Positions 3,367 through 31,000 of a stretch of 32,000 nucleotides of DNA are shown piece by piece. Source of the DNA: Acaryochloris marina MBIC11017 (GTDB lineage: Bacteria; Cyanobacteriota; Cyanobacteriia; Thermosynechococcales; Thermosynechococcaceae). The stretch is taken from contig NC_009925.1 in the NCBI RefSeq assembly GCF_000018105.1, positions 6,090,001 to 6,122,000 on the forward strand, in the 5' to 3' direction. The notes beneath the pieces are model-generated. The model saw only the letters and a list, made by a program, of their open reading frames with translations. It was not told the DNA's origin and made no database searches. The translations under genes were made by a program, and so were the position numbers. Position 1 is the stretch's first letter. Every line of letters begins with the position of its first letter.

Positions 3367-4563
3367 TCATCCGATTTGGACCGATGATGATTCGAGTACC
3401 ATCTGCAAAATAGCCCCTAAACCAGAACTCATTTCTGCAGGAGTGATTTTGCCGTCATGGTCTTGATCCAGGGCATCAAATACAGCATCTGTTCCTAACC
3501 ATTCTTCCCGGGTGATACAACCATCACCATCCAGATCGTAGCTGTTAAAAATATTGGCGGTTGCAGTACTAACATTAACGTCAGCTTCTAGTCGCACCAA
3601 TCGGTTAATTAGCAATTGTTCTAAGGTTTCCAGCGCTTTACTAAACCCCTTAATCCCTTCTTCTAATTTTTCAGAAGCCATTGGATCGTCGGCATGCATC
3701 TGCAAAAAGGTTGCTTGATCGATGGCCAACTTTTCTATCTCCATCCCTGCTGCCTTACTGGGATCGAGTTTTCGCGGCACATTATCAGTACTGGCTTGTA
3801 ACTGTGCCAGTAGCTTAGGTGAAATGGTGAGGAGATCACATCCGGCTAATTCTAAGATCTCGCAAGTATTGCGGAAGCTAGCACCCATAACTTCAGTCGT
3901 ATACCCGAACTTTTTATAGTAGTTATATATCTGAGTAACAGACTGTACCCCCGGATCGTCAGAAGGTGTGTAATCTTGGCCAGTCTCTTTTTTATACCAA
4001 TCCAGAATCCGACCGACAAAAGGAGAGATTAAAGTAACCCCTGCTTCGGCACAGGCGATGGCCTGGTGGAGACCAAAAAGTAGCGTAAGGTTGCAGTGGA
4101 TGCCCTCTTTTTCCAAGACTTCTGCAGCTTGAATCCCTTCCCATGTGGAGGCGATTTTGATTAAGATGCGATCTCGGTTAATTCCTGCTTTTTCATATTC
4201 AGAAATAAGGTAACGTCCTTTGGCAATCGTGGCCTCTTTATCGTAGGAAAGTCTCGCATCAACTTCCGTTGAGACCCGCTGAGGAACGATTTCTAAAATC
4301 TTTTTGCCAAAGGATACTGCTAAGCGATCAAAGGCTAAAGACGCAATGTCTGCATGAGTTGCACCTGAACCTGCATCTGCTTTGGCTTGCAGCAAGGTTT
4401 CATCGACAATCTCTTGATATTCAGGCATTTGTGCTGCTGCAGTTATCAGAGATGGATTGGTGGTTGCATCACGGGGGGTAAACTGCTCGATCGCTTGAAT
4501 ATCACCAGTGTCAGCAACAACAACTGTAACTGCTTTGAGTTGGTCTAGTGCACTTTTGGCCAT
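3367..4563 (-). CDS. tal: Transaldolase fused to a C-terminal pair of EF-hand calcium-binding loops
   Basis: [22 protein letters not shown]...TTNPSLI...[13 protein letters not shown]... is a textbook class I transaldolase. The C-terminus has two canonical 12-residue EF loops, [12 protein letters not shown] and [13 protein letters not shown] chose the ATG at 4563 ([10 protein letters not shown]) because the 23 upstream codons of the track ORF look like a non-coding extension. Confidence 0.9.
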
Positions 4564-4911
4564 GACTGATTCCCTGTAGTAATGGGTGATGCCTTTACAC
4601 TGTAGCGTTGAAGAACTAGGGATTCGAGCCATGTAAGCATTGGCTCTAGTTCCCCGATCTCATTGTGAATAACAGACTTAACTTATTACACATTACTCAC
4701 TCTAGATATGGATTAATGCCATATGAACCCTATCTTGGAAAATTCTCAGAATCCTCTGGATTCAACCTCAGTTTCCTATGACTTAATCAACATAGACATT
4801 CAAAGGTTGATGCATCTCTTACTCTAATCCTCGATGGATGAGTGATTTCAATGATTGCCACGTACGTTCTGCATCAATGTCTAGTTCTGCTACCAAAACA
4901 AAGGATTAACG

Positions 4912-5238: not shown

Positions 5239-5560
5239 ATGCCACAGGAAGGTAACCTTGCACTTCCGTATCTAGGGAGGCACAAGTTGGAAGTCTGTTC
5301 AGTGCCCCAAAGCTATTTATTTGCGCGCAAATCTCCATCTCTCATCGCCAACCTTGACAGCGTTTGCAGACCATAAAGTTTGGCCTGAATCACTTATCCG
5401 TTTTCCACCTACCCTACCCCTATCAGGTCACAATTTCAGATGGGGGCATCTCAGGAGCGACCTTTGTATCATGAGTATGATAGCTCTATATCTTTTAGGA
5501 TTCTGATGTGATATTTCTGATGGAATCTGTATCCTTGATCCAAACGGTGCTTTAATTTGG

Positions 5561-6778
5561 ATGACCTTTGATATGCTCGATTCCTCAAAGATTTTCGTTC
5601 AAGGAATAGCACTCATTGCCTTCGGAGTAGTGTCTTGTACTTCCCCACAACGAACGGGTCCAAGCTCTTTAGCTTCTGAGAAACAGGAGTTGGCTGCCCA
5701 GCCAGGAGCAGCTCAATGTACCTTAGTGGACAATGGCTTTGGCCCTCAAGGACAAGTTCAGATCAGGGTGGAAGAAGTGGTATCAGGGTTAGAGGTGCCC
5801 TGGGGTATTGCCTTTTTGCCGAATAACCGCATGTTGGTAACAGAGCGGCTCGGACGAATTCGGTTGGTTCAGAATGGCAAGTTACGCTCTCAGCCTATTG
5901 CTACAGTTAGGGTCAGCGATCGGGGTGAAGGGGGATTGTTGGGGATTGCCACCCATCCTGATTTTGCCAATAACCGATTCTTCTATATCTATTTCACCGC
6001 CAGCCAGCCTGGGAAATCTGTCAATCGAGTTGAGCGCTGGCGATTGTCAGAAGATGGGGGCAAAGCAATCCGCGATCGCATTATTGTAGACAACATTCCC
6101 GTTGCTCGCTTCCATAATGGTGGACGAATTCGATTCGGCCCGGACGGGATGCTCTATATTGGCACGGGTGATGCCCGAGATCCTGACCTATCTCAGGATG
6201 TTAACAGCTTAGCGGGTAAGATATTGCGGGTAACTCCAGAAGGACAGGTCCCCGCCGATAATCCTTTTGCCAATAATCCAGTCTATATTTTGGGGATTCG
6301 CAATACCCAAGGATTTGATTGGATCAATCCTTCCACCCTTTGGGTGAGTGATCATGGTCCAAGTGGTGAGTTGGGACGGTCAGGACATGATGAAATCAGC
6401 GTGGCCCAAGCTGGAGATAATTTGGGCTGGCCCACGGTGTATCGATGTGAATCCCAACCTGGATTGGTCCCTCCGACCCTCACCTGGCGTCAAGCCCTAC
6501 CCCCTGGCGGTGCTGCAGTATACACAGGGGATGCTGTTCCAGAGTGGAAAGGGAGCTTTTTGGTAGCAGGACTGCGGGCTGAACAGTTGCAACGTATCGT
6601 CATTGATCCTCAATCCGGTCAGTTGAAGCAGCATGAAGTTTATTTGCAAGGTCAGCAAGGACGTTTGAGAGAGGCTGTGATGGGACCTGATGGTGATTTG
6701 TATATCACGACGAGTAATTGTGACGGTCGGGGTAGATGCTCAGCAGACCGAGATAAGATTCTGCGCATTACTCGCTAA
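5561..6778 (+). CDS. PQQ-dependent sugar dehydrogenase (soluble glucose/sorbosone dehydrogenase family beta-propeller), probable lipoprotein
   Basis: 405 aa. Family-typical strings are VPWGIAFLPNNRMLVTERLGRIRLV, GLLGIATHPDF, HNGGRIRFGPDGMLYIGTGD and GNLGWP. The N-terminal hydrophobic segment ends in a lipobox-like VVSC. Confidence 0.85.
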   Translation: MTFDMLDSSKIFVQGIALIAFGVVSCTSPQRTGPSSLASEKQELAAQPGAAQCTLVDNGFGPQGQVQIRVEEVVSGLEVPWGIAFLPNNRMLVTERLGRIRLVQNGKLRSQPIATVRVSDRGEGGLLGIATHPDFANNRFFYIYFTASQPGKSVNRVERWRLSEDGGKAIRDRIIVDNIPVARFHNGGRIRFGPDGMLYIGTGDARDPDLSQDVNSLAGKILRVTPEGQVPADNPFANNPVYILGIRNTQGFDWINPSTLWVSDHGPSGELGRSGHDEISVAQAGDNLGWPTVYRCESQPGLVPPTLTWRQALPPGGAAVYTGDAVPEWKGSFLVAGLRAEQLQRIVIDPQSGQLKQHEVYLQGQQGRLREAVMGPDGDLYITTSNCDGRGRCSADRDKILRITR

Positions 6779-7174: not shown

Positions 7175-10100
7175 ATGTCCCGTTCCCTCAAGGTTCGTAG
7201 TGATCGTACCGACCAAGCTAAATTAGCCCTTAAACGCAATGGATTTCATAGTCAGAGAGCACTCGCTGAAGCTGCAGGTTTTTCGTTAGCAACAGTCAGC
7301 AATTTCTTACGGGGGCTACCGGTTGATTTTGCAACTTTTGTCGAGCTGAGTGCACATCTGTCTCTGGATTGGCAAAGCTTGGCTGATGTTGGCGGCTCTC
7401 AGCCAACGCCAAGCCATCAGTCTGCTGATCAGCCCCCAAGTCGTCCAGCTCAGGATCGACGTTTAAACTGGGGAGAGTCTCCAGACGTGTCCTCTTTTGT
7501 CGGTCGTTCGGCTGAACTATCGATTCTTCGCCAATGGATAGAGGTTGCTCGATGCCGCTTGATTATGATCCTGGGGATGGGAGGCATCGGCAAAACCTCA
7601 CTTTCGGTCACTTTGGTCCACCAAGTTCAAGAGAAATTTGACTGCGTAATATGGCGTAGTCTTCGGAATGCCCCCTCAGTAGAGGCTATTCTGGACCAAC
7701 TCTCTCAATGTTTTTTCCCTTCTCAGCAGAATCAAACGTCGTTGGATGCCAAAATTCTCCAGTTATTAGCGTATGTGCGAGAAAATCGTTGTTTGATTGT
7801 TCTGGATAATGTGGAATCGATTTTACAAAGTTGCGATCGCAACGACCAATTCCACGCTGCCCACGAAGGCTACCAACATCTCTTCAAAGTGATGGGTGAA
7901 ACTCAGCATCAGAGTTGTCTAATTTTGACGTCTCGGGAAGTTCCCCGATCCTTAACTACATTGACCGGAGAAACGACTCCAGTTCGAAACTTTATTCTCA
8001 AGGGTTTGCCCTATGCAGAGGCTCAGCAACTCTTTCCTTTCAAAGGCAATTTTGAAGGCCAATCTAGTGAATGGGAAACCCTGATTGACCATTACAGCGG
8101 TAATCCTCTGGCCTTAAAAATTATTGCCTCTGCGATTCAAAATTTTTTCAATGGCAATATTTCCCAATTCCTAGCCCTGCTGAAGGAAGAGACATTTGTC
8201 GTTGACGATATCCATAACTTATTAGCTGAACAATTTGATCGCCTCACCGCTTTAGAACAAGACATTATGTATTGGTTGGCTCTAAATCGGGAACCCACCA
8301 CGTGGCAAGAGCTGCAATCTGATTTAGCCAATCATCATTCATCGGCAGAGATTTTACAAGCGATCTCATCCTTAGAACGAAAGTCATTGATCGAGAAACA
8401 AAATCAAGGTTTTACTCAATCTGCCGTAGTGATGGACTTCTTGATTCAAGAGTTTGTGGAGATGATGGTCGAAGCACTGATTGCCCAAGATCTATGCCGG
8501 CTGAGTTCCCACTGTTTGATCAAGGTCAACAGCAATGATTACCTGCAAGATATACAAACTTGCTTAGTTCTAGATCCCATTACTCAAAAATTGCAGACTC
8601 ACCTTGGTTCCTTACCCCATCTTAAAGAACATCTAAAACAGATTTTGGCTCAAGCCCGACAGCAGCCGTTGCAACTTGCAGGTTACATTGGGGGCAACAT
8701 TTTCAATCTGTTACGACATTTACAGGTTGACTTAGGACATTATGATTTTTCCAATCTAACTCTGTGGCAGGCTAATCTTCAGGGGCTCCGTCTTAACAAA
8801 ATCAACTTGTCTGGATGTGATTTAGCGCATTCATCCTTTTCTCAAACCTTTAGCAGTATCCGGGCCGTTACCTTTAGCCCTGAATGGTCACAGACAGGTG
8901 TAGAGAATCAACTTTTGGCAACGGGCGATACCAGCGGTGAAATCCGCCTATGGCAGGTGCCAGAAGGACAAAATATATTAACCCTATCGGGGCATACCAA
9001 TTGGGTTTGTGCTTTAGCTTTTCATCCCAAAGAAAAGTTGCTTGCTAGTGCCAGTGCCGATCACAGCATCAAAATTTGGAATACTCATACTGGACAGTGT
9101 CTCAATACATTGATAGGCCATCGCAGCTGGGTCATGTCAGTTGCCTATAGCCCTAGCGGGAAGGAATTACAGCCATTTCTTGCCAGCTGTAGTGCAGACC
9201 GCAAGATTAAACTCTGGGATGTGCAAACGGGGCAATGCCTACAAACGTTGGCAGAACACCAACATGGCGTCTGGTCTATTGCGATTGACCCTCAAGGGAA
9301 ATACGTAGCCAGTGCTAGTGCAGATCAGACGGTTAAGCTTTGGGATGTCCAAACGGGACAATGTTTACGAACATACCAGGGGCACTCACAAGGGGTTTGG
9401 TCCGTGACCTTTAGCCCGGATGGCAAGCTTTTAGCGACAGGTAGTGCAGACCAAACCATCAAACTGTGGAATGTGCAAACGGGACAGTGCCTAAACACAT
9501 TCAAGGGCCATCAAAATTGGGTGTGGTCGGTCTGTTTTAATCCCCAAGGGGATATCCTCGTCAGTGGTAGTGCAGATCAATCTATCCGGCTGTGGAAGAT
9601 ACAAACAGGACAATGCCTTAGAATCTTGTCTGGCCATCAAAATTGGGTGTGGTCTGTCGCTGTGAGTCCTGAAGGAAATCTGATGGCCAGTGGCAGTGAA
9701 GATCGCACCTTAAGGCTATGGGATATCCACCAAGGTCAATGCCTCAAAACCTGGCAAGGATATGGTAATTGGGTGAGATCCATTGTTTTTCATCCTCAAG
9801 GAGAAGTGCTGTACAGCGGTAGCACTGACCAAGTGATCAAACGGTGGTCTGCCCAGTCTGGAAAGTATTTAGGGGCTTTATCGGAGAGTGCTAATGCCAT
9901 TTGGACTATGGCGTGCCACCCCACGGCTCAATGGTTAGCGAGTGGGCATGAAGATAGCAGTGTAAAGCTATGGGATCTTCAAACTCATCAATGCATCTAT
10001 GCCATCACTAGGCATCTCAATACAGTGTGGTCAGTTGCCTTTAATCCATCGGGAGATTACCTAGCAAGTGGTAGTGCAGATCAAACGATGAAGCTCTGGC

Positions 10101-10750
10101 AGACTGAGACAGGGCAGCTGCTACAAACCTTTTCAGGTCATGAAAATTGGGTTTGCTCCGTGGCCTTCCATCCCCAAGCAGAAGTGCTAGCGAGTGGGTC
10201 TTATGATCGCACGATTAAACTTTGGAATATGACGTCAGGGCAATGTGTGCAAACTCTGAAAGGACATACTAGCGGCTTATGGGCGATTGCGTTTAGTCCA
10301 GATGGTGAACTATTGGCAAGCTGCGGCACAGATCAAACGATTAAGCTTTGGGACGTCCAGACTGGACAATGTCTGAAAACCCTGAGAGGACATGAAAATT
10401 GGGTAATGTCGGTTGCCTTTCACCCTTTGGGGCGATTGCTAGCGAGTGCCAGTGCAGACCATACCCTCAAGGTATGGGATGTTCAAAGTAGCGAGTGTTT
10501 ACAGACATTGTCAGGTCATCAAAACGAAGTCTGGTCAGTGGCCTTTAGTTTTGATGGCCAGATCTTAGCAAGTGGAGGAGACGATCAAACCCTGAAGCTT
10601 TGGGATGTTAACACCTATGACTGTCTCAAAACCTTAAGGTCTCCCAAACCCTATGAAGGAATGAATATTACAGATGTGACCGGGTTAACGCCAGCCCAGA
10701 AGGCGACTTTGAAGTCGTTAGGTGCTAAAGATCATCCACCATGTCTATGA
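7175..10750 (+). CDS. STAND NTPase: XRE-type HTH, NB-ARC ATPase, pentapeptide repeats and 14 WD40 repeats
   Basis: 1191 aa. HTH: [22 protein letters not shown]. Walker A: GMGGIGKTS (about 7574-7600). Walker B: [14 protein letters not shown]-type ILTSRE and GNPLALK motifs are present. Pentapeptide stretch: [31 protein letters not shown]. There are 14 units of the GH..WV.SVAFSP.G..LASGS.D.TIKLW type and a C-terminal tail [26 protein letters not shown]. Confidence 0.9.
8852..10640 (+). repeat. Fourteen tandem coding repeats of about 126 bp (WD40 units)
   Basis: A recurring DNA block (for example GTGCAAACGGGGCAATGCCT, GTCCAAACGGGACAATGTTT, GTGCAAACGGGACAGTGCCT) has a period of about 126 nt inside the STAND gene. 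Confidence 0.85.
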
Positions 10751-11642: not shown

Positions 11643-11892
11643 AGTAAACCTTGGGATGTAAACAGAAGAGTTGATCCAGTTTTACTTCCATGATTCTTCA
11701 TCCATAGTTATGTAATATGAAATCTCAAGAGAATTCAAAAGTTAAAGTATTGACTTTAGCTTGACTTGAATAGACGAGTATAGGTAATACAAAATTTGTC
11801 GAGAATTTGAAAAATTAAAAGACTGCATGAATTACTAGGTGTGATAACGGGGTTTGCGATCGCACTGAGCGGGCTTAACCTACATTATTCAT

Positions 11893-12022
11893 GACATTTC
11901 TAAAAATATCTCTAAAAGTCTTCTATTACCGCCGTCAAATTTCTCCTCAAACCGTTCAGGCCATCCTTCAATCTCATGCTGAAGGCAGTAGCATCGGAGG
12001 CCTATCCCACATCACAGGTGTG
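11893..12022 (+). pseudogene. Remnant of an IS1-family insA (5' fragment)
   Basis: It translates to ...YYRRQISPQTVQAILQSHAEGSSIGGLSHITGV, matching CYRRQISPETIQTILQAHVEGSSLRGLSRITGV of the intact copy at 18892-19269. Nucleotide identity is roughly 78% by eye. Confidence 0.65.
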
Positions 12023-12024
12023 AT

Positions 12025-12070
12025 TAAATATTGGTAAGCCTCCGGCTTGTCGGGGGCTTACCAATATTTA
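12025..12070. repeat. 46-bp palindromic element (16-bp perfect arms)
   Basis: TAAATATTGGTAAGCC (12025-12040) and GGCTTACCAATATTTA (12055-12070) are exact reverse complements around a GC-rich 14-nt spacer. The element directly abuts the break point of the IS1 remnant. Confidence 0.8.
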
Positions 12071-13437
12071 GTTAATATGAATAAAATACTTTACCATCTA
12101 AACCAAATAATTCCGCTGTTGAAACCTCTACATAACTATCACTTACTCTAAAGTTGCTATCGAGCAATTGAACCCTTTGAGTATGCTGCTGTTTGCAAGT
12201 TTTAAAAGAACAAATGTTCGATGATTTTTGTGCCATTTCAACTAAACTAAGTTGATTGTTTAATGATCTAATCCTAACGATAAATTTATTCATTCTTTTT
12301 GTATTTTTATATTAGATGTAATGGCTCAATATTTATATTTCAAAGTCTAGTTTTTTCTTAGGCTATTGAGCTGTAAGAGTTCTTGTAAGGTCTTTCCATC
12401 ATGATAGATGTTGAATCTTCGCTAGAAAGAAGTAGTTGATAATTGAGCTAAAGACGATGATTGCGAACTCTTTCAGGAGTGATATCTGTAAGATAACCCT
12501 AAATATCATCATTATTTATATAGGTGAAAATCATCACTCTGCCAAATGACAATCTTTCGATTATTAAAAAAGCCTATATGTTGCAGGTTGACCATTAACC
12601 CTTACTCCATTTCAACTTCGATCATCATCACAGGTTCCATCAATTAGTTTGTATTTCTTATTATCACTACTCTGAACCTGGACTAGCTGGGTGTGGTCCT
12701 TAGATATTGTATATGAGAGTAGATAAATATCGATGTCAGGTTTCCTGTCAATAGAGTAGACTATACGGTACTTTTATGTCTCAGCGCTAAGAAATGCTTA
12801 GCATGTTCCATTAATATGTAAAACTCATTAGTGATGAATAGTATTTTTCTCATATCTAATAGTAAATCTAAAAACTATCAATACAATCAGTGATATTACT
12901 TATTTTGCAACTTAATGTGATGTGCAACAAGACAAAATATTTCCGAATTATTGAATAATATATCCTTGTTGATAATTTCAATTAAGCCAATATTGTATGA
13001 TATTTAATTTCTATTTTATAGAATTAATAAGTGAAGTTGAAGATGTGACTTCTCAATAAATTTAATTGCTGAATTAGCCTGTGATGCTTTCTATTTATGA
13101 TATTCAGCGATCTTTAGTATTTTGAATATCAGTATATTTTTGTTGTGCTTTTCAGTAGTTTTTCTATATAAAAATTACTCTATATAGAAATAAATAGCTT
13201 ATACATAAAATAAGTTTTTGATGGCGATCCGTGTTTATACTGACAGCTGAGATGATTGGCACGGGTAAGTTAGTAATACTACTAAGATTTTTCAAAAATT
13301 ATATTTATATATGATCTGTAATTCTAAATGAATTTCATCTCATGAATTGAGGATGTGCATGTATTTTGAAATTTCCTATTATTAAAAGTCTACAAAAAAG
13401 TAGATATCAATAATAATTTTATCTCTGAGTGCTTGAT

Positions 13438-13917
13438 ATGATGAATCAACAAATTCTACGCTATTTACTCAATTTTAAGAATCGCAATAGTAATCGAGGT
13501 TTCACGCTTTTAGAATTATTGGTAACAATAGTGATAATGGCAGTGCTTTCTGGCATAGCCTTACCATCTGTTCTAAATCAAACCCTTAAAGCAAAACAAG
13601 CAGCTGCTCATAACCATATTGGCTCAGTCAATCGGGCACAGCAAGTATATCGTCTTGAACGTGCAACATTTGCTAACTCCATTACTCAGTTGAGTATTGA
13701 TCTACCTATGACGACCAATGAATATACCTATTCATTTGGTGCAGCAAACGCCACTGTTGCTGAGTTTAGAGCTACTCCTCAAGATAATTCTCTGAGTGCT
13801 TTGACGGGATGTACACGCGCCAATATCGTAATAGGGACTTTAGCCACAACAGATTTTTCGATTGTTGAGCAGTCAGCTCCCGGTGGAGGTATTCCTGCTA
13901 CTCCTCCCAGTTGCTAG
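13438..13917 (+). CDS. Type IV pilin-like protein (prepilin with an N-terminal cleavage/methylation motif)
   Basis: ...NRNSNRG/FTLLELLVTIVIMAVLSGIALPS is the class III signal with Glu at +5, followed by the cyanobacterial pilin string SVNRAQQVYRLERATFA. Two C-terminal Cys residues are present. The track ORF starts at GTG 13429. The ATG at 13438 or 13441 is the more likely start. Confidence 0.85.
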   Translation: MMNQQILRYLLNFKNRNSNRGFTLLELLVTIVIMAVLSGIALPSVLNQTLKAKQAAAHNHIGSVNRAQQVYRLERATFANSITQLSIDLPMTTNEYTYSFGAANATVAEFRATPQDNSLSALTGCTRANIVIGTLATTDFSIVEQSAPGGGIPATPPSC

Positions 13918-14395
13918 CATGATTTAATAATAAGCAGTCACAAATGCGATGAGTGAGTTGGTGAAGTTTGAGATATTGCCCCTTCTCCAACATGACTTCC
14001 AGGTAAACCTTCGTTTGGTTGAGTTCGTTTAAGCTTAACATCATCTCTATCTCTTTCCGACTCAGTAGTGGAAATGTATAGACCACAATCGTTTCACTTA
14101 ACTTCATTATCGCCACAAGTCTCTGATTGATCTGTACTTGAGGCTGGAACCTTGATAGCAAAGCTTGAGCTTGGGTGACGGTATCTTCTGAATCGGCCAC
14201 AATCAACTGCATTAGACCCACGCCCAGAGGGTCAACGGGTTCATTCAAGTCATCAAGGTAGATTCAGTGAACTTGATCGCTGTTTAAATTGGCTCGGAAG
14301 ACTGGATATAATCAGGCTCAATGCTACGTTGAGGGTAAATAACAACGGCTTGCCAGACCACGCCACGGTATCAGGTACAGATTGAGATACAGATA
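13898..14395 (-). pseudogene. Rpn-family (PD-(D/E)XK, DUF2887/DUF4351-type) recombination-promoting nuclease/putative transposase, decayed distal part
   Basis: Family-typical strings are spread over three frames with stops: QAVVIYPQRSIEPDY, SDQVH*IYLDDLNEPVDPLGVGLMQLIV, and MKLSETIVVYTFPLLSRKEIEMMLSLNELNQTKVY. The 3' end is cut short and overlaps the pilin gene stop by 20 nt. Confidence 0.7.
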
Positions 14396-15349
14396 TAGCA
14401 GTCGCCATATTGAGAAGGACTTAAACTAGAGAAGTATTTTATTCCTTCTCCTGTGTGATGCCCAAAATTTATAGTTACGACCTACGTTGCAAAGTGATAG
14501 ATGCGATTGAGCTAGATGGGATGCGCCCTTCTGAGGCTAGTGAGCTGTTCGATATCAGTCGTAACACCATTAACCAATGGCAACACCTCAAGGCGGAAAC
14601 GGGTGATTTGCATCCCAAGCCAGTCCATCATCCTGGCCATAGCCATAAAATCACTGACTGGGACAAGTTTCGAGCGTTTGCCCACAAGCATCGTCATAAA
14701 ACCCAAGCTCAGATGGCTCAACTATGGGATGGAGAGATTAGTGATCGAACCATCTCAAGAGCCCTCCAGAAAATCGGATTTACTCGAAAAAAAAACATAT
14801 GGGTACCGAGAACGAGATGAGCACAAACGGGCAGAGTTCATCAAACGTCTAAGTACCGTAGATCCAGACGATATCGTCTATGCGGATGAGTCGGGCATGG
14901 ATCATCGAGACGAGTATGACTATGCTTATGGCCCCAAAGGTGAGCGGGTTTATGCTTTGAAGACTGGGCGTAGAAGCGGCCGAGTCAATATGATTGCGGC
15001 GTTGAGAGCCAAGCAATTAATGGCGCCGTTCACGATCGAAGGAGCTTGCAATCGCACCGTATTTGAAATTTGGCTGGAGCGTTGCTTGATACCTATGCTC
15101 AAACCTGGGCAGAAGCTGGTGATTGATAATGCCACTTTCCACAAGGGGGGACGAATACAGGAATTAGTGGAAAAAGCAGGATGTGAGGTTTGGTATTTAC
15201 CGCCTTATTCCCCTGACTTGAATAAGATTGAGCGGTCTTGGTCATGGATTAAAAGTCGCATCCGTCACCAATTAGACCATTTTGGGTCTCTCAGAGAAGC
15301 AATGGAACATGTCCTGCATCTGGCGTCCTGAATAGTATGGCGACTGCTA
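14396..15349 (+). mobile_element. IS630-family insertion sequence with a TA target-site duplication
   Basis: The terminal inverted repeats match over a 16-nt perfect reverse-complement stretch: TATAGCAGTCGCCATA (14394-14409) and TATGGCGACTGCTATA (15336-15351). The outermost TA on each side (14394-14395 and 15350-15351) is read as the duplicated target. A DDE transposase lies inside. Confidence 0.85.
14455..15331 (+). CDS. IS630-family DDE transposase, two frames joined at an A9 run
   Basis: Frame 1 encodes the HTH part (...ALQKIGFTRKK). The +1 frame continues ...KTYGYRERDEHKRAEF...DESGMD...DNATFHKG...LPPYSPDLNKIE (DD35E). The frames meet at AAAAAAAAA 14787-14795. Confidence 0.8.
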
Positions 15350-15351
15350 TA

Positions 15352-15567: not shown

Positions 15568-15659
15568 CTAACGTTTCTCTACTAAAATCTATCTTGAAAA
15601 TTTTGCTTTTGGGTTTAGGATTGAAGGCATATGATTCGGTTTCAGATGGGGGACTGTTG

Positions 15660-17147
15660 ATGAAGCGTACTCATGCTTATAAGCCAGAAAAATCTAAGTC
15701 ACAACCGATACCTCAACAGATATCATCAGATCAAGCTCAATCAGCAACACCAGTTCCTCCCCCTATCCAAGCGAAAACAAATGAAGAAGGTTTGGCTGAA
15801 TGGAAAGCTCAACAGGAGAAGTGGGAAAAGTTTGGAACACCTTGGCAAGATAAGGTTCCTAATCCTTCAGGGGAATTGGCACAACCTTGGATTCAGCGGA
15901 AACTAACCCTTGGACAACCAGGAGATAAGTATGAACAGGAAGCGGATCGGATTGCTTCTCAGGTAGTACAGCAAATTAATGCCCCTACTTTATCTCAATT
16001 CAATCAAGGGCAATCCGTACAACGAGAGAAAGAATTGGAAGAGGAAGTCTTAGCGCAAAGTATTCGTCCTGCCATTCAGCGTCAGCAAGAAAAGACAGAT
16101 GAAAAAATATCATCAGAGTTAGAGTCTTCTATTAATACTGCTAGAGGTAGCGGACAGCCATTGGATACAGGATTGCAACAGTCAATGGGTCAGGTTATGG
16201 GTGCAGATTTTAGTGGCGTGAGGGTGCATACGGATGCCCAATCAGACCAATTGAATCAATCAATTCAGGCGAGGGCATTTACAACCGGGCAGGATGTATT
16301 TTTCCGAGAGGGGGCATATCAGCCAGGGAATCGTCATGGGCAAGAGTTGATTGCCCATGAGTTAACTCATGTAGTGCAACAGAATAGTGCAATTCAGGCT
16401 AAGAGAAGTAGTGTATCGTTCGAGCGGCTGCCTTCTAGAGAGCAGACTGAGAAAAGTGCAATGGCTTTTGGCCAACCTAGTGAGATAGTCAACCAATCGC
16501 CAGCAGGCCGAGTACATCGCTGTTGTGGAACAAGCGGCCCGACCGAACTTAAGGATGAGTTAGTGGGGACAGGTAGTAAACCAGGGGTGATCGTTGAAGC
16601 AATCCTCAATAAATCTGAAGAGTTTGCTAGCCTTAAAGCTAAGGCAGGAGTGACATACAAGACGGCTAAGAAGGGAACATCGGGTTCGTATGATCCTGAA
16701 AGCCATGAGGTCCGCCTAGCAAAAGGACAGAACACAACAACAGCCTTGAACGCAATTTTTGAGACTGCAAATGCCATACAGCATTCGCGATTTGCAAAAG
16801 TTAAAAATGCTTATGACAAAGGTGAATTTGAAAATGGAGCAAAACTGTCTGATTGGGAAGTAGACTCTCTAGACCCACTAAATCCCACTACTCCCGAAGA
16901 GTGGCGTGCTGCAATTCAAGAGTACTATGAGTGGGATAGCTTTCAGCTTGCGAGAAAAACCTTCGAAGAAGTAGAACCTTTCTTCAAAGAAGCGGGTAAG
17001 AGCGATGAGTTTGAAGCATTTGGAAAGTTTTTCCCTTGTGAAAATTTTTCAGACTATATCGGAGTCGCTAAAACGAACCACTACCGAGATCAGGTCACTC
17101 GCCTAAACGCAGCAAAAGACCCAAAGCGCATTAAGTTAAACTTCTAA
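15660..17147 (+). CDS. DUF4157-domain (HExxH zincin-like) protein with an uncharacterised C-terminal domain of about 230 aa; toxin-like architecture
   Basis: Signature strings are LTLGQPGDKYEQEADRIASQVV and GADFSGVRVHTDAQSDQLNQSIQARAFTTGQDVFFREGAYQPGNRHGQELIAHELTHVVQQ. I chose the ATG at 15660 (MKRTHAYK) over the upstream TTG of the track ORF. Confidence 0.85.
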   Translation: MKRTHAYKPEKSKSQPIPQQISSDQAQSATPVPPPIQAKTNEEGLAEWKAQQEKWEKFGTPWQDKVPNPSGELAQPWIQRKLTLGQPGDKYEQEADRIASQVVQQINAPTLSQFNQGQSVQREKELEEEVLAQSIRPAIQRQQEKTDEKISSELESSINTARGSGQPLDTGLQQSMGQVMGADFSGVRVHTDAQSDQLNQSIQARAFTTGQDVFFREGAYQPGNRHGQELIAHELTHVVQQNSAIQAKRSSVSFERLPSREQTEKSAMAFGQPSEIVNQSPAGRVHRCCGTSGPTELKDELVGTGSKPGVIVEAILNKSEEFASLKAKAGVTYKTAKKGTSGSYDPESHEVRLAKGQNTTTALNAIFETANAIQHSRFAKVKNAYDKGEFENGAKLSDWEVDSLDPLNPTTPEEWRAAIQEYYEWDSFQLARKTFEEVEPFFKEAGKSDEFEAFGKFFPCENFSDYIGVAKTNHYRDQVTRLNAAKDPKRIKLNF

Positions 17148-17157
17148 TCATCTATTT

Positions 17158-18126
17158 ATGATCCCCGGAGATATCCTTAAGGCTATTCGCCTCAGCGTTA
17201 TTACCCTTGCGAGTGATGCAGATATTGCTTTGGGGGAACTAATGTCTACTACTCTTCCAGACCCACTCCCACCTGTAGCGATCTTGCCTGTGGCCACAGG
17301 CTTAGCATGCGGTGGTTCAATAGAGCAACTTATCCCTGTCACCTCAACAATAGTTGCGGTTGCCTTTGCACTTCGTACTCTCGACGATATAGCTGATCAA
17401 GATAACTCTAATGCGCTGCATCAAAAAATAGGTATTGGACGTGCAGCAAATTTCTCTGCTGCGCTAATTGCCTTAGCTTCGCGTGAGATAGGAGTTCTCT
17501 CTAAATCATCACCCGATAGCATCCTCATGACAGGAGACTACTTTGATGCTCTGCTACGGATATTTGTTGGACAGGATAAAGACATTCAAAGAGAAGTTCG
17601 TTCATTGGTAGCATACGAAGAAGTCGTTGAATTGAAGACTGTTGCTGCTTATGAGCTAGCAGCAATTGTGGGTGCCAATGCTGTTACTGCCGATGGAAAT
17701 TTCACAAAGAAGTGTCGAGTCTGTGGTCGTCATATTGGTTGGGCACAGCAAATACTTGATGATATTGAGGCGTTCTGGTTTCTGGACAATGCAGAAGAAT
17801 CCGGTCATGAACAGTATACGTACCCTGTACTTCTAGGGATAGAGAATGGTGGTAGTACAGGTGAAGCAGTGTCAAGGCTTTGTAATCAGAAAGACCGAAA
17901 CGATGATGCTATTCGTAACCTACTGGATAGTCTTGATGTCCGAGGTCAATTAATGATGCGAGCATTAGATCATCGTGACCAGGCCCTGTTAGTTCTTGGT
18001 CCACCACTTCGGTCAGAGGGACATCAGCTTATCAAATTGTGGTTTGATTGGCTCTTTCGTGACGGAGAGCGCTTGTTGAAATTGTCATCATCAAGAAGTT
18101 TAATAAGTGGGTCGCCCTTGAGCTGA
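17158..18126 (+). CDS. Divergent polyprenyl synthetase-like (trans-isoprenyl diphosphate synthase fold) protein
   Basis: 322 aa, with its ATG 10 nt after the previous stop. The layout matches trans-IPPS enzymes: ACGGSIEQLIPVTSTIVAVAFALRTLDDIADQD (first Asp-rich motif), GQDKDI, LKTVAAYELAAIVGA, HIGWAQQILDDIEAF (second Asp-rich position), YTYPVLLGIE. The canonical RRG is missing and the second motif reads DDIEA. Confidence 0.6.
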   Translation: MIPGDILKAIRLSVITLASDADIALGELMSTTLPDPLPPVAILPVATGLACGGSIEQLIPVTSTIVAVAFALRTLDDIADQDNSNALHQKIGIGRAANFSAALIALASREIGVLSKSSPDSILMTGDYFDALLRIFVGQDKDIQREVRSLVAYEEVVELKTVAAYELAAIVGANAVTADGNFTKKCRVCGRHIGWAQQILDDIEAFWFLDNAEESGHEQYTYPVLLGIENGGSTGEAVSRLCNQKDRNDDAIRNLLDSLDVRGQLMMRALDHRDQALLVLGPPLRSEGHQLIKLWFDWLFRDGERLLKLSSSRSLISGSPLS

Positions 18127-18131
18127 TCAAG

Positions 18132-18389
18132 GTGGTTAATCAGGATGGAGAACGGCAATATGCGATTCGCTATGCGGGTAAACAAATCTTCTCAGAAGAA
18201 GTGGAATCGGAGATTGAAATAAAAAGACAAAGTTGTGAAATCCGAAAGGACGATAGAGAGCTAATTATAGAAATTATCGCTCTTTCATCACCCTTGACAG
18301 AAAAAAACGGCGTTTTCACCCTAGGCGCAGCCCTGGGTATGGCTCCATTATTCAGTAGAAGCATCCTATTTTTTCTAGGATTAACGTAA
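18132..18389 (+). CDS. Small hypothetical ORF (85 aa, GTG start), third member of the cassette
   Basis: It starts 5 nt after the previous stop in the same direction. It has a charged N-terminal half and a hydrophobic C-terminal tail (GVFTLGAALGMAPLFSRSILFFLGLT). It ends 10 nt before the IS1 remnant, so it may be truncated. Confidence 0.35.
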   Translation: MVNQDGERQYAIRYAGKQIFSEEVESEIEIKRQSCEIRKDDRELIIEIIALSSPLTEKNGVFTLGAALGMAPLFSRSILFFLGLT

Positions 18390-18398
18390 AACAACTCT

Positions 18399-18627
18399 GG
18401 ACCAATGGAATATAACGTCAACAGATTGGGCGAAGGTATCGATGACAGAACAAATTTGGTCAAGTCTGGCAACAAAGTGCAGTGACCTTAAGACTGGTAC
18501 TGACTTATTTCAATTGGATCTGGTGCCACTCTCGATTCAAAAATACGGCTGCCCAACGTGCTGGGCTGACGGAGCATTCCTGGGAATGGCAAGACCTCGC
18601 TACCTATCCAACACTTAGTTGATGCAC
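18399..18627 (+). pseudogene. Remnant of an IS1-family element (3' end of insB plus the right terminal repeat)
   Basis: It aligns along its whole length with 19498-19726 of the intact copy, at roughly 80% identity by eye. The alignment includes ...GGTGCCACTCTCGATTCAA...CGGCTGCCCAACG... and the terminal GTTGATGCAC. Confidence 0.75.
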
Positions 18628-18829
18628 AATCCTTTGATTTGGTGAATTAAACGCTGCTCATCGATTCTGCAAAGCAGTAGATGAAGTGAGTAGTTTTTTG
18701 AGACCTTGCAGTCATATGGCAGAATGCGTGTCTCCATCTGCTCAAAGAAAGAAGTTCATCAAACGGTATTGGTGAACTCAAAGAAATATTCCAGGCTACT
18801 TAACAATAGGAAAGACAACGTTTGGTGGG

Positions 18830-19728
18830 TCGTGCATCAAAGAAGTGTGGGTTTGTTAAACCGATAGGGAGTCGAGTTGTTTTATTTCCTCATGCAATGT
18901 CCTCTATGTGGTCATCCTAAAACCCACAAACATGGCAAGACCAGCAAAGGCAGTCAACGTTACCGTTGCCCCCACTGTCAACAGACCTTTAGTGAGACCT
19001 TTGACACCCTGTGTTATCGCCGTCAGATCTCTCCTGAAACGATCCAGACCATCCTTCAAGCTCATGTTGAAGGGAGTAGTCTACGAGGACTCTCTCGCAT
19101 CACGGGTGTAGCGTATAACACTTGTGTGAGTGTGGTTCGTTCAGCGAGTCATAAATCCCAAATGATTCACAATGGGGAAGTTCAGGCCGTTGCGACCGAC
19201 GTCATTAATGCAGATGAGTTGTGGTCCTTTGTCAAAAAAAGCAAAAGCACTGTGAGCCGAAGGAGTTGAGGGTAGGCGACTGCTGGATAGCATTGAGTCT
19301 TGCGAAAGAGAGTGGTCTCGTGCTCAGTGGCCGTATTGGCAAACATACCGACGAGCTAGCTCAAGAATTGATTGAAAATACTGAGGGCAAAACCGCCTGT
19401 CATCATTGGCAAACGGATGGTTGGGAAGGGTACGCACGACAATTACCCGATGAGGTCGTCCATGAAGTGAGTAAAGCCCTGACCCAACGCTTAGAGCGGA
19501 CCAATGGCATCGTGCGTCAGCAGACCGGGCGTTGGCATCGACGACAGAATAAGTTTGGCAAAGTCTGGCAACAGAGTGCGATGACTTTAAGATTGGTGCT
19601 GAGCTATTTCAACTGGATTTGGTGCCACTCTCGATTCAAGAACACGGCTGCCCAACGAGCTGGATTGACGGAGCGTCCTTGGAGATGGCAAGACTTAGCT
19701 TCCTATCCCACACTTTGTTGATGCACAA
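18830..19728 (+). mobile_element. IS1-family insertion sequence, apparently intact
   Basis: The imperfect terminal inverted repeats are GTGCATCAAAGAAGTGTGGG (from 18832) and the reverse complement of CCCACACTTTGTTGATGCAC (ending at 19726). InsA and InsB frames lie inside. The outer boundaries are uncertain by a few nt. Confidence 0.8.
18892..19721 (+). CDS. IS1-family transposase InsAB' (insA 18892-19269; the insB frame reaches 19721 after a -1 frameshift)
   Basis: InsA has a zinc finger (CPLCGH...CPHCQQTF) and an HTH. The slippery run AAAAAAA (19234-19240) lies in the overlap, and the downstream ORF is in the -1 frame, as in IS1 (A6C motif). The InsB part includes WQTDGWEGY. Confidence 0.8.
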
Positions 19729-20376
19729 TCTAATATTCTTGGCTAACCAACCTCGAAAATTTCGTTACGCAGGCATTGAATTAATGTTCATTCTCTGGTG
19801 TCGTAGCTAATAATCAGTGGGCTTCTTAACGTAAGTATCATTTTTCTCTTAAAAAAGTGACACGCTCCCTCCTACGATTAGTCAAAACTCCTACAGAATC
19901 AAATGGAAGACACCTTTTGCTCAGTCTAGAGGGGTTCGGATATGTACGTCCAGAGCACTTGCGTAGGAATTCGATGATGATGCTTGGTCAATCATTTAAA
20001 AATTGATTTATTTCCTGAAAAAAGTGATCTAAATCAGTGACAAGCCAATTAAAAAAATTAATTTTTTGATCCCAGAAAACTATCTGTAAGTAGAAAATTC
20101 TATATTTTTTTATCTCTCTATACCTCAAGCTTAACTCAGTTTTAAGTCAGCTATTCTCAGTTCTAAAGTCATATATACATCTTCTTGAATATAGATAGAT
20201 GCAGTTTAGATGGCTCTTATATGAGAGTTTCATGCTTCTTTGCAACTTCAAGGCATTGCTTTGAATTAGTCATTACAAGATGCAAGTTATTTCTAATGTG
20301 TTTTTCTTTGAAATACCAGATAATTCTTGTTTTTTTAGCTATAGAGATAAAGTTTCTTCTAGTAACAGATGAAGTC

Positions 20377-21198
20377 ATGAGAATTACACATATCTTAAAT
20401 AAAGTTGATCGATTTCTCCACCCTTCTAATATCTATGCTCTTCAACCTGATCACGATCTTCTTAGGAAAAATCGATCACTTATAAAATCAAATGATATTG
20501 TTCTACTATCTTATCCGAGATCTGGAAATACTTGGTTGAGAAGACTCTTAGCAAACTCAATATTAGAGTCTCAGAAAAGTCTAATCTCTATACAGTCAGA
20601 TATTCCTTTTGAAACCGTAATCCCATCTATTTATACTCAAAGCTTAGAACCCAGTTGTTTACATAATTATCAAGATATCAGTCAACGTATCATTAAAAGT
20701 CATGAGCATCGGGATGCCAAAGGACATCGAACCATTTATTTAATGCGTAACCCAGTTGATACTTTAGTGTCTTGGTATCATTTTGTTTGTGGATCGCCAA
20801 AACTTTTAAATCAATTTCCTTGGATACAAGATCTCTCTATTGATGAGTTTTGTTTGAATGCTGTAGAAGGCTGGGCCAAACACATCCAACAGACCCGCAA
20901 GTATGAAAATATCTTACTAGTTGAATATGAAAACTTATTTCAATACCCAAACCAGGTTCTTGGAGAAATTTTATCTTTTTGTGGTATCCCCCAACACAAT
21001 ATTGATCTAGATCGGGTAATTGAAAATCAGTCTATCCGTAAACTTAAGCCTGTCACACAATCACTAGAGTTAAGAAAAGGTGGGGTTGGACATGGCAATG
21101 TTGAGTTACAAGCAGATACTGTGGCAGAACTACAGAAATATCAGAACTTGATCGATACCAAATGGAAACCTGCAATTGAACTTATTACTCAGTCATAG
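20377..21198 (+). CDS. Sulfotransferase (PAPS-dependent family)
   Basis: The 5'-PSB loop is LSYPRSGNTWLRRL and the 3'-PB motif is YLMRNPVDTLVSWYHF. I chose the ATG at 20377 (MRITHILNK) because the 64 upstream codons of the track ORF are AT-rich filler. The gene is visibly AT-rich. Confidence 0.8.
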   Translation: MRITHILNKVDRFLHPSNIYALQPDHDLLRKNRSLIKSNDIVLLSYPRSGNTWLRRLLANSILESQKSLISIQSDIPFETVIPSIYTQSLEPSCLHNYQDISQRIIKSHEHRDAKGHRTIYLMRNPVDTLVSWYHFVCGSPKLLNQFPWIQDLSIDEFCLNAVEGWAKHIQQTRKYENILLVEYENLFQYPNQVLGEILSFCGIPQHNIDLDRVIENQSIRKLKPVTQSLELRKGGVGHGNVELQADTVAELQKYQNLIDTKWKPAIELITQS

Positions 21199-27613: not shown

Positions 27614-29704
27614 GTGACTTTTAATATTCGCCAGCTCGACGGCCTGGATTATGACGAAGCTGAACCCTTATTTGACGATTACATCAATGGTTTGATCAAC
27701 GAATTCATCCAATCAGACGTGGGAATTGCCCATACCCAAACTTACCCAGAGGGAGGATTTTGGATCGGCACGTTTATTGAAATGGCCTTTGCCTACGGTG
27801 AATTTACCCTACCGAAGATGACCAAAGGGGACGCCCAGCTGGTGATGGAGAATATCCTGCCTCGTAAGCTTACCTTACGCGATCGAAGTGAAGCTGAGGA
27901 CGCGATTCCTGAGTTAGTGGCCTTTTGGACCTTTTTGAAACGAGAGTATAAATTGCGCAGCGGGGGTGCGATCGCAAAATATCTCACCTCTATCCAAGAC
28001 AAATTTGCAGACTGGATGTTTGATGCATCCCGAGGCGGCATTGCTAAAAACTTTATGCTGCAGGGAATGCAGGCGGGCTTTGATATGTCGAGTCAAGCCG
28101 ATATAGAGGCATTTCAAGCGGAATATAATCAGCGCATCAAAGCTGATCCACAAAATAATCCCCTTATCCCTGTTGAACCAACAGTTCCCATGACAGCTCC
28201 TCCTCCAGATATTCAGAAGTTTCTGGATTTAATGGGAGTCGAACTACCGGAAGTGGGCGAACAGGTCAACCCGGTAGAGCTGCTCAACAAAATAATGGAT
28301 GCAGCCGATCAGATGGCTGACCTCCTGGACGCTACTGGACCAGCCGCCAAGGAAGGACCGGGGGATACTCTACGCTCCCTCAGAACTGAATTGATGTCCG
28401 CGTCCTTAGATAAAGATGCCTCCTTGTCAGAGCAAGAGATTACACAGCTTAAAGCACTGACCATTAGTGAAACTCAACCTGGTTCCATCCTTAAAGACTT
28501 TCAAACCCTATTAGGGTTTATTGGTCTCGAAGGTCGAGCGGTCAGTGGCAAACGACAGCAAATTTCCATGAAGGACCTCGCTGAACTGAACCAGCAGTTG
28601 AGCACTCCCATAGACATTGATCTAAAACGTCCAGCTCAAAAATCCTATCCGCCAATCCATGGACTCTATCTGCTGTTGAGGGCAACAGGTATTGTAAGCT
28701 CAGTGACCAAAGGCAAAAAACAATTTCTGGTTCTGAATCAACCTGTATATGAACTCTGGCAACAACTCAATCCCACAGAACGGTACTGCACGCTACTGGA
28801 AGCGTGGCTGATTCGCGGCTATGCAGAAATGCTAGGGGAGGACCGCATGGGATTCCTCACAGAAGGCAATCGCTGCATACAAGGTTGGGAAAGGATTGCT
28901 GACCAGAAAAAGCATACATTTAATCAGAAAAAGTCATCCCTGGATTTTTTCAGCTACTATCCTGGCATCCATAATCTAGCGCTAATGGAGATGTTTGGCT
29001 TTTTGAACATTACGACCGGGAAACCGGAAGCTGGGAAAGGATGGCGGATTAAGAGTTTTGAAGCATTACCCTTGGGGTCACCCATATTCAAGTTGGTTCG
29101 GAATGCTTATGAACAGAATGATATGACTTGGCCTTCTGAGGTCGATCCATCTGTTCCCTACGATGAATTACAAGATACCCTACAACCCTATTTCCCGGAA
29201 TGGCAGAAAACCCTGGTCTTAGCTAGTTCAGGCTTTCGTCCCGATCGCCATATTTTTAAGGTTAGTTTAGGAAAAATCTGGCGACGGATTGCCATCTCAG
29301 GAGAAGCCACTTTAGAGGATCTCAGTGCTTATATTCTCTCCTCCGTCGAGTTTGACTCAGATCATCTGGATTCCTTTACCTATACCAATGCAATGGGGCG
29401 AAAAGTGGAAGTACTACATCCCTATGCCGACGGCGGCTTCTTCTCTAGAGGAGTACCGCTTCATACCGATGAAGTTAAAATTGGCAGCCTCCCCCTGTCA
29501 GAAGGCAGTGTGATGGAATATCTGTTTGACTTTGGAGATTGCTGGACTTTTGACGTTCAACTCGAAACCATCGAGCCAGATCTCAACCAAATTCAGAGCA
29601 CTCGAACTAAAAAGAAAAAGAAGAAAAAAACACCTGTGGGTGAAATCTTGGAGGTACATGGAGAATCCCCCGAACAATACCCAGGTTATGAAGGGGATTG
29701 GTAG
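27614..29704 (+). CDS. Large protein of unknown function with a C-terminal plasmid pRiA4b ORF-3-like (MM3350-like) domain and a poly-Lys tail
   Basis: 696 aa with a GTG start. The C-terminal IFKVSLGKIWRRIAISGEATLEDLSAYILSSVEFDSDHLDSFTY...MEYLFDFGDCWTFDVQLETIE fits the family signature (IWRRI..., YxYDFGDxWxH-like). KKKKKKK is encoded at 29609-29630. Confidence 0.75.
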   Translation: MTFNIRQLDGLDYDEAEPLFDDYINGLINEFIQSDVGIAHTQTYPEGGFWIGTFIEMAFAYGEFTLPKMTKGDAQLVMENILPRKLTLRDRSEAEDAIPELVAFWTFLKREYKLRSGGAIAKYLTSIQDKFADWMFDASRGGIAKNFMLQGMQAGFDMSSQADIEAFQAEYNQRIKADPQNNPLIPVEPTVPMTAPPPDIQKFLDLMGVELPEVGEQVNPVELLNKIMDAADQMADLLDATGPAAKEGPGDTLRSLRTELMSASLDKDASLSEQEITQLKALTISETQPGSILKDFQTLLGFIGLEGRAVSGKRQQISMKDLAELNQQLSTPIDIDLKRPAQKSYPPIHGLYLLLRATGIVSSVTKGKKQFLVLNQPVYELWQQLNPTERYCTLLEAWLIRGYAEMLGEDRMGFLTEGNRCIQGWERIADQKKHTFNQKKSSLDFFSYYPGIHNLALMEMFGFLNITTGKPEAGKGWRIKSFEALPLGSPIFKLVRNAYEQNDMTWPSEVDPSVPYDELQDTLQPYFPEWQKTLVLASSGFRPDRHIFKVSLGKIWRRIAISGEATLEDLSAYILSSVEFDSDHLDSFTYTNAMGRKVEVLHPYADGGFFSRGVPLHTDEVKIGSLPLSEGSVMEYLFDFGDCWTFDVQLETIEPDLNQIQSTRTKKKKKKKTPVGEILEVHGESPEQYPGYEGDW

Positions 29705-29783
29705 CTTCTGCTCAGTCCTTAGAGATTCATGACTCAAGGATTCTTCCTCAAACCTTCAAGTAAAAAAGCGATTGTCTTAGCTG

Positions 29784-31000
<1,217 letters not shown>

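Follow-up and report, generated by a model that had tools for sequence, protein, structure and literature searches.

What is a gene for a prenyltransferase-like protein doing immediately behind a toxin gene? The question is raised by a locus of Acaryochloris marina MBIC11017 that we analysed within a window of 32,000 nucleotides (nt), corresponding to positions 6,090,001-6,122,000 of NC_009925.1; all positions given below are positions of this window. Three co-directional open reading frames (ORFs) lie there on the forward strand, separated by gaps of 10 nt and then 5 nt, and the second of them, ORF2, encodes the prenyltransferase-like protein. We find that ORF2 associates specifically, and in both directions, with a linker of about 40 amino acids (aa) in the toxins encoded beside it, and we suggest, at a probability of about 0.5, that it is a ComQ-like prenyltransferase that modifies the neighbouring toxin at this linker. 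Their products match AM1_6021, AM1_6022 and AM1_6023 of this strain exactly:

15660-17147, + strand: ORF1, 495 aa from an ATG, with a TTG upstream at 15594
17158-18126, + strand: ORF2, 322 aa, prenyltransferase-like, with a predicted trans-isoprenyl-diphosphate-synthase fold
18132-18389, + strand: ORF3, 85 aa, with a GTG start, ending 10 nt before a remnant of the insertion sequence (IS) IS1

The original prediction, which had treated the three ORFs as one cassette stranded between IS elements, gave the ORFs, their gaps, the motifs of ORF2, the positions of HELTH and FETAN in ORF1 and the IS flanks as we find them; its coordinates 17383 and 17758 are those of the first Asp of each Asp-rich motif in ORF2. 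It overlooked the linker, which is the element conserved together with ORF2.

The toxin encoded by ORF1

Judged by its domains, ORF1 is a DUF4157-headed polymorphic toxin of the contractile-injection-system type, and the Pfam match that the original prediction had anticipated is strong. Its parts are:

15660-16157, + strand: N-terminal region (aa 1-166), of low complexity, beginning MKRTH and carrying the motif KLTLGQPGDKYEQEADRIASQVV, common among these toxins
16158-16388, + strand: DUF4157/eCIS_core domain (aa 167-243), PF13699, E 9.4e-33, 112.7 bits against a cut-off of 22
16407-16541, + strand: conserved linker (aa 250-294), SSVSFERLPSREQTEKSAMAFGQPSEIVNQSPAGRVHRCCGTSGP, the proposed recognition or modification site
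16542-17147, + strand: variable C-terminal domain of the 'FETANA / IQEYYEW' family (aa 295-495 and stop), conserved with loci L004, L010, L012 and L014

DUF4157 cargo proteins have been described as a disordered N-terminal loading sequence followed by DUF4157 and then by a variable C-terminal domain. Like the DUF4157 toxins of extracellular contractile injection systems (eCIS), such as Cgo1 and Cgo2 of AlgoCIS, ORF1 combines a low-complexity N-terminus, a DUF4157 domain with the zinc-binding HExxH motif (HELTH, aa 233-237, 16356-16370) and a variable C-terminal domain, the last of which is presumed from its sequence relationships to be the toxic one. By analogy, the N-terminal region is presumed to be the delivery or loading part. 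Unlike these toxins as the literature describes them, proteins of the ORF1 type have the linker of about 40 aa and an obligatory downstream gene for an isoprenyl diphosphate synthase (IPPS)-fold protein, and some linker-bearing relatives of ORF1 have no DUF4157.

An exhaustive phmmer search with the C-terminal domain gave 17 hits among 1.84 billion representatives, 16 of them usable; P0025 was dropped as a repeat-protein false hit. Invariant residues are the E, T, N and Q of FETANAxQ (FETAN lies at 16758-16772 in ORF1), the E, Y, E and W of IQEYYEW, and a late H. The domain has no significant Pfam match and no sequence match in the PDB even at E 10, and a profile-profile comparison (hhalign) with DUF4157, of which the original prediction had thought it a possible degenerate second copy, returned a probability of 0.1%. 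A single-sequence AlphaFold2 model was unreliable, with a predicted local distance difference test (pLDDT) of 45; its Foldseek matches, all with E > 0.1 and mostly to zincin-like folds (selecase, IrrE, anthrax lethal factor and SPRTN), are a hint only. The domain also follows N-termini of other kinds, such as the glycine-zipper-like N-termini of P0033 and P0034, and thus behaves as expected of a modular toxic domain.

A recurrent pair of genes

In every readable locus, about 16 from three phyla, a homologue of ORF2 lies just 3' of a polymorphic toxin gene, on the same strand and 5-160 nt away, and is 36-80% identical to ORF2. These loci come from Cyanobacteria, two metagenome-assembled genomes (MAGs) of Chloroflexota, a MAG of Betaproteobacteria and metagenomes; they include the metagenome contigs L001-L006 and L014, the genomes L008-L013 (Pseudanabaena, Nostoc, Spirulina, a cyanobacterial MAG, a Chloroflexota MAG and the Betaproteobacteria MAG) and the plasmid pREC3 (L025). 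The last, a conjugative plasmid of A. marina MBIC10699, carries a second, divergent pair of a toxin and an ORF2-like gene (L025:13215-15927), the latter 36% identical to ORF2. Two kinds of exception were seen. In L113 the homologue lies about 180 nt downstream of the toxin gene and is split by a frameshift, and in L003 and L008 one small gene (at 1905-2360 and 5507-5944 of these loci) stands between the toxin and the ORF2 homologue. The intervening gene encodes a YbjN-family protein of 146-151 aa, which may be the better candidate for an immunity protein or chaperone of the toxic domain shared by these two loci.

Exchangeable C-terminal domains behind a constant part are a feature of eCIS-associated polymorphic toxins, and they are encountered among the relatives of ORF1, where at least seven unrelated types of C-terminal domain are linked on their 3' side to ORF2 homologues:

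FETANA/IQEYYEW type: ORF1, L004, L010, L012, L014
RamC_N-like type: L001
HEFGH zincin metallopeptidase type: L006
'GLDPxxGG' type: L011, L013, L025, L030
three further types: L003 and L008; L005; L009

The N-termini of the partner toxins vary as well: some have HELTH-type DUF4157, some the HEAWH type, some both and some neither. The linker-bearing L001, P0022, P0023 and P0030 give no match to PF13699. The original prediction had described ORF2 as the partner of a DUF4157 head, a pairing that is too narrow, given that linker-bearing partners without PF13699 also have an ORF2-like gene.

Nor does the third gene travel with the other two. ORF3 has no family match in Pfam, NCBIfam or PADLOC (PADLOC returned no match for any of the three ORFs), and its protein cluster consists of Acaryochloris sequences only. 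At L014, where the ORF1/ORF2 pair is 80% identical to ours, homology ends at the ORF2 stop codon and ORF3 is missing downstream; no small gene recurs 3' of the other FETANA-type loci. A role for ORF3 as an immunity gene or as a third member of the module was rejected for this lack of conservation, and ORF3 probably does not belong to the conserved module. On the evidence of these comparisons the conserved unit is two genes, ORF1 and ORF2, and not the three-gene cassette first proposed.

The copies of IS630 and IS1 that flank the genes might suggest that an IS-mediated accident brought them together, or that they are decaying remnants. We give this explanation next to no weight. The pair is met again at about 16 loci that lack these IS elements, so that the original prediction's reading of the adjacency as more than an accident holds. 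The genes are under purifying selection, with ratios of non-synonymous to synonymous substitution rates (dN/dS) of 0.07 for ORF1 (C-terminal domain, against the 88%-identical relative) and 0.18 for ORF2, the relative compared being 80-88% identical. The N-terminus of ORF1 is intact, and its MKRTH start is found also in the Pseudanabaena relative.

ORF2 follows the linker

The partner toxins all carry the linker between their N-terminal part and their C-terminal domain (13 of the 13 first examined, and the later ones too). It fits the pattern [ST]-R-L-P-S-x2-Q-x3-S-x3-L-G-Q-x(8-14)-[VI]-[RH]-[RQ]-[FCY], frequently with C-G and a Lys-rich stretch behind it, and its near-invariant residues are the R, the P, a Ser and a Gly. 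Scored with a hidden Markov model (HMM) of the linker, members outside the training set reach 36-64 bits, against no more than 11 bits for the best of 79 other toxin loci.

A reverse sample, chosen independently of ORF2, was assembled with a DUF4157 region of the second type, HEAWHVVQQKQGRV, as bait, and comprised 4 IMG/VR and 80 metagenome loci. The linker is present in one of these 84 loci (L030, at 61.6 bits, with 11 bits as the runner-up score), and the single ORF2-family gene of the sample is in that same locus, 10 nt after the toxin (424.8 bits). Random coincidence of one linker and one ORF2-like gene among 84 loci has a probability of about 0.012. Approached from the other side, all of the roughly 13 loci reached from ORF2 have the linker, against a background of about 1 in 80.

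The sample collected with the C-terminal domain of ORF1 divides in the same way. Among its 16 usable representatives, ten have the linker and six lack it. An ORF2-family gene lies downstream of the linker-bearing toxin in L110 (474 bits) and in L113 (257 + 214 bits for the two parts of the frameshifted gene, in a low-coverage assembly), and no ORF2-like gene is present in the 314 bp that follow the linker-less P0035 (L112). P0033 was left out of this comparison because its contig is too short. The co-occurrence of the ORF1 C-terminus with ORF2 homologues, for which the original prediction had proposed a survey across genomes, was thus seen for the two linker-bearing toxins and not for the linker-less one. 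L008 and L110, moreover, each contain a second DUF4157 toxin that lacks the linker, and no ORF2-like gene belongs to this second toxin. As linker and ORF2-like gene co-occur in independent samples, ORF2 tracks the linker, and neither DUF4157 nor the toxic domain.

This result bears directly on whether ORF2 serves ORF1 as its cognate immunity protein, an option that the original prediction had offered and that its place directly 3' of the toxin gene, where immunity genes usually stand, would recommend. We consider it very improbable. Immunity proteins co-vary with the toxic domain, whereas a single ORF2 family stays constant behind the unrelated C-terminal domains listed above; the same FETANA domain, conversely, is accompanied by ORF2 homologues only 38-44% identical, and the linker-less FETANA protein just mentioned lacks such a gene directly downstream. 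In L003 and L008 the YbjN-like gene is the better candidate.

Fold and motifs of ORF2

ORF2 matches PF00348 weakly, at 39.9 bits, and above the cut-off of 27. NCBIfam equivalogs score far below their cut-offs, the best being a model for an encapsulin-cargo polyprenyl transferase (41 against 450 bits), and there is no ComQ-type NCBIfam match. An AlphaFold2 model built from an alignment of 14 family members is all-helical and of good quality (pLDDT 89.5; predicted template modelling score, pTM, 0.88). Foldseek matches it to geranylgeranyl diphosphate (GGPP), octaprenyl and other trans-isoprenyl diphosphate synthases, with template modelling (TM) scores up to 0.77 and of 0.76 against the GGPP synthase 1wy0, and also to the indole prenyltransferase Ord1; in sequence, ORF2 is equally remote from the IPPS enzymes of the PDB and from Ord1. 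The isoprenoid-synthase fold named in the original prediction is therefore supported by model and profile alike, and the retained first Asp-rich motif, the altered second one and the missing RRG are likewise borne out. The motifs are located as follows:

17383-17403, + strand: first Asp-rich motif DDIADQD (D76, D77, D80, D82)
17569-17574, + strand: GQ of GQDKDI (G138, Q139)
17635-17640, + strand: KT of KTVAAYE (K160, T161)
17749-17772, + strand: altered second motif QILDDIEA (Q198-x-x-D201-D202-x-E204)

Members of the ORF2 family are only 36-55% identical to each other (22-23 sequences). D76, D77, D80 and D82 (DDxxDxD) do not vary in any of the 22 sequences, out of 23, that extend over the motif, and G138, Q139, K160, T161, Q198, D201, D202, E204, R273 and D274 vary hardly or not at all. 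Other parts of the canonical site have been lost. In place of DDxxD, the second motif is DDIEA in ORF2 and DDxE[AS] in the family, its third Asp having become Ala or Ser; ORF2 has no RRG(K) behind the first motif, owing to a deletion of four residues relative to 1wy0; and motif I has other residues in place of the basic ones of GKRxR (L/D/V-type residues at K-R-R when compared with 5e8k; family columns 'PLxPxALLPxATG'). ORF2 thus shares its fold and its DDxxD, GQxxD and KT motifs with the GGPP and farnesyl diphosphate synthases of PF00348, and differs from them in lacking GKRxR, RRG and the third Asp of the second motif.

In IPPS enzymes the first motif and the Lys of KT hold the allylic diphosphate via Mg2+, and motif I, RRG and the second motif position isopentenyl diphosphate (IPP). 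The retention of the Mg2+ and diphosphate residues together with the loss of the IPP motifs suits an enzyme able to ionise a prenyl diphosphate and using an acceptor other than IPP. As modelled, ORF2 is a genuine if non-canonical protein of the IPPS fold. Its family is also rare: a word-index search of 5.8 billion proteins found 14 members, a scan of one genome per species found seven loci, PLSDB plasmids contain one, and there is none among IMG/VR viral contigs. The model of ORF2 begins with an ordered helix, without a disordered N-terminal loading sequence, and ORF2 is thus probably not cargo itself.

A proposed role for ORF2

ComQ, StheQ, PalQ and the P domain of ChrPC are IPPS-fold proteins that have kept the first Asp-rich motif, have repurposed the second for the acceptor, and are encoded beside the peptide that they prenylate. 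ORF2 resembles this class (ComQ-ComX, StheQ-StheX, PalQ-PalX and the P domain of ChrPC) in its all-alpha fold, its retained DDxxD and its altered second motif with a Gln one turn upstream. Its gene, always next to that of a linker-bearing toxin, would adjoin the gene of its substrate if the proposal made below holds, and no IPP condensation is predicted from the sequence. It departs from the class in the second motif itself (DDxE[AS] in the ORF2 family, NDxxx in the ComQ class) and in its partner, which is a toxin of 300-700 aa with no conserved Trp, where the ComQ class acts on a Trp in pheromone or RiPP precursors of about 50-100 aa (RiPPs being peptides made by ribosomes and modified after translation).

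If ORF2 is a prenyltransferase of this kind, it would bind and ionise an allylic prenyl diphosphate via Mg2+, with no binding of IPP, would recognise the linker of the adjoining toxin, and would transfer the prenyl group to that linker, following the logic of ComQ and ComX with a full-length toxin as the substrate. Lipidation of the toxin would thus take place in the producer, and may serve membrane targeting after delivery, or aid the toxin's handling or loading. The candidate acceptors in the linker are the position occupied by C, W or N near its end and the near-invariant Ser or Arg; a single conserved Cys was rejected as the prenyl acceptor, five linkers having no Cys at all. We infer the prenyl transfer to the toxin, the accepting residue, the chain length and the biological purpose alike. 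A broader proposal, that an IPPS-fold enzyme prenylates its producer's own full-length injected toxins at an internal motif without Trp, before delivery, and that the linker is a portable tag moved by recombination, we regard as possible, at somewhat less than even odds.

Several observations speak against prenylation of the toxin. No universal nucleophile is found in the linker: the Cys near its end is common and not universal; L011, L013 and L030 have Asn in its place, L025 has Trp (VRQFKWG), and P0031 lacks it. Every characterised peptide prenyltransferase of the IPPS type acts on tryptophan, and a conserved Trp is absent from the linker, that of L025 being the only one. The known substrates of the ComQ class are short peptides, not proteins of 300-700 aa. 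Linker and ORF2 could, finally, be homology arms around an exchangeable toxin cassette, with no contact between their products. The identities of linkers and of ORF2 homologues are correlated (Mantel r 0.82, p 2e-4), a correlation that fails to separate co-evolution from shared descent and that we do not use as evidence of co-evolution.

The possibility of homology arms belongs to a wider alternative, in which ORF2 acts elsewhere, either as a co-effector or on a small isoprenoid or lipid that it makes or modifies, and the linker is the conserved end of the constant region of one toxin lineage, co-inherited with ORF2 as the flank of a cassette. It is established that recombination between conserved flanks swaps the C-terminal cassettes of polymorphic toxin loci, and the correlation just given is what shared descent predicts. 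We nevertheless think this improbable. The N-terminal side of the toxins is shuffled too (DUF4157 of either type, both or none), and the linker stays with ORF2 across three phyla all the same; no other isoprenoid or lipid gene recurs near the ORF2 homologues in the loci read, and the ordered N-terminus argues against a co-effector.

A second alternative keeps the contact between ORF2 and the linker and dispenses with the chemistry. As a non-covalent adaptor or chaperone that binds the linker, ORF2 would stabilise the toxin, keep it inactive or hand it over, and the prenyl diphosphate site would be a ligand or structural site. Such an adaptor accounts equally well for the tracking of the linker and not of the toxic domain, is at ease with a linker that lacks a conserved Trp or a universal Cys, and has a precedent in the chaperone role already proposed for DUF4157-associated genes. 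By analogy, it would recall the type VI adaptors (DUF4123, DUF1795/Eag and DUF2169), whose accessory genes likewise track a non-toxic part whatever the toxic domain; ORF2 differs from these in its fold and in its fully conserved predicted catalytic site. The invariance of all Mg2+ and diphosphate ligands (DDxxDxD, KT, GQ, QxxDDxE and RD) over sequences as divergent as 36-55% identity would be unexpected of a pure binder, and we know of no chaperone of the IPPS fold. An adaptor of this kind therefore seems unlikely, though it is the alternative that we take most seriously, and prenylation at the linker is the reading that we prefer.

Protein prenylation is regarded as eukaryotic, and the known bacterial cases concern small peptides, namely cyanobactins, ComX-type pheromones and RiPPs. 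The effectors SifA of Salmonella and AnkB of Legionella carry a C-terminal CaaX box and are modified by the farnesyl- or geranylgeranyl-transferase of the host. ORF1 would be similar to them as a lipidated effector that gains membrane targeting, and dissimilar in that the proposed enzyme is bacterial and of the IPPS fold, the motif internal and the modification earlier than delivery. A full-text literature search found nothing relevant that ties DUF4157, contractile injection systems or polymorphic toxins to prenyl or polyprenyl enzymes. What is new is the conserved linker found together with the enzyme gene; the toxin class and the ComQ-like fold are of kinds already known. If our proposal is true, bacterial prenylation would extend to proteins, probably with a new acceptor residue, a maturation step would be added to the poorly understood biology of DUF4157 and eCIS cargo, and a short transferable tag and its enzyme would become available for lipidating engineered injection cargo or other proteins. 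Should ORF2 prove to be only a linker-binding adaptor, it would still be the first accessory factor defined for this class of toxins. The HMMs of the linker and of the ORF2 family together provide a simple rule for finding the module.

Relation to contractile injection systems

Many DUF4157 toxins are described as having no immunity genes. The genes of the window include none for an injection system, as the original prediction had noted for injection and secretion genes; this holds for the 32 kb, the rest of the A. marina genome not having been searched. A position within about ten genes of an eCIS operon, not seen in the window, is seen in L110, the only fetched locus in which the module adjoins an injection-system gene. 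The order there (L110:1296-8348) is an Afp15-type AAA ATPase, the linker-bearing toxin, the ORF2 homologue and the second DUF4157 toxin without linker. The toxin gene overlaps the end of the ATPase gene, whose 739-aa product combines WHD and AAA domains and aligns over 95% of its length with an AAA ATPase of Serratia entomophila plasmids. As the Serratia gene stands between a contractile-injection tape-measure gene and a DUF4255 gene, the Serratia ATPase is Afp15. For the window itself, 'orphan mobile cargo' is a fair description.

Flanking elements and other features of the window

The three ORFs stand between the following elements:

14394-15351, + strand: IS630-family element on the left (PF01710 and PF13358), with 27-nt inverted repeats at 14394-14420 and 15325-15351
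18399-18631, + strand: IS1 remnant on the right, 233 nt, 82% identical to the complete IS1 copy (PF03811 and PF03400 in the right flank)
about 18830-19730, + strand: complete IS1-family copy on the right, with 20-nt inverted repeats

Strain AP026075, otherwise 99.97% identical, lacks the complete IS1 copy, which is thus a recent insertion; the 233-nt remnant is older. The IS630-family transposase consists of two overlapping frames (14455-14820 and 14516-15331), which suggests a programmed frameshift or a disrupted gene. Abutting this element is a DUF2887 fragment at 13898-14248 that matches only positions 133-200 of the 200 of the profile and is probably a gene truncated by the IS630 insertion. 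Further mobile-element content lies at 27614-30734, where a 696-aa protein with a PRiA4_ORF3 domain stands beside an IS110-family transposase (29784-30734).

Promoter-like sites at the ORFs are no commoner than in shuffled sequence, no terminator-like site was found between or 3' of the three ORFs, and neither the Rfam nor the tRNA scan of the window gave a hit. Two stretches, 11650-13430 and 19750-20500, are low in G+C (0.28-0.37, against about 0.45 elsewhere); neither has an Rfam match, and the first contains no ORF of 110 aa or more. The remaining genes of the window are ordinary cyanobacterial ones. A 1191-aa protein with many WD40 repeats is encoded at 7175-10750, and as the same gene in AP026075 is annotated with an NB-ARC domain, it is a nucleoside triphosphatase of the STAND type. 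At 3367-4632 a transaldolase is fused to C-terminal EF-hand calcium-binding motifs, an unusual fusion.

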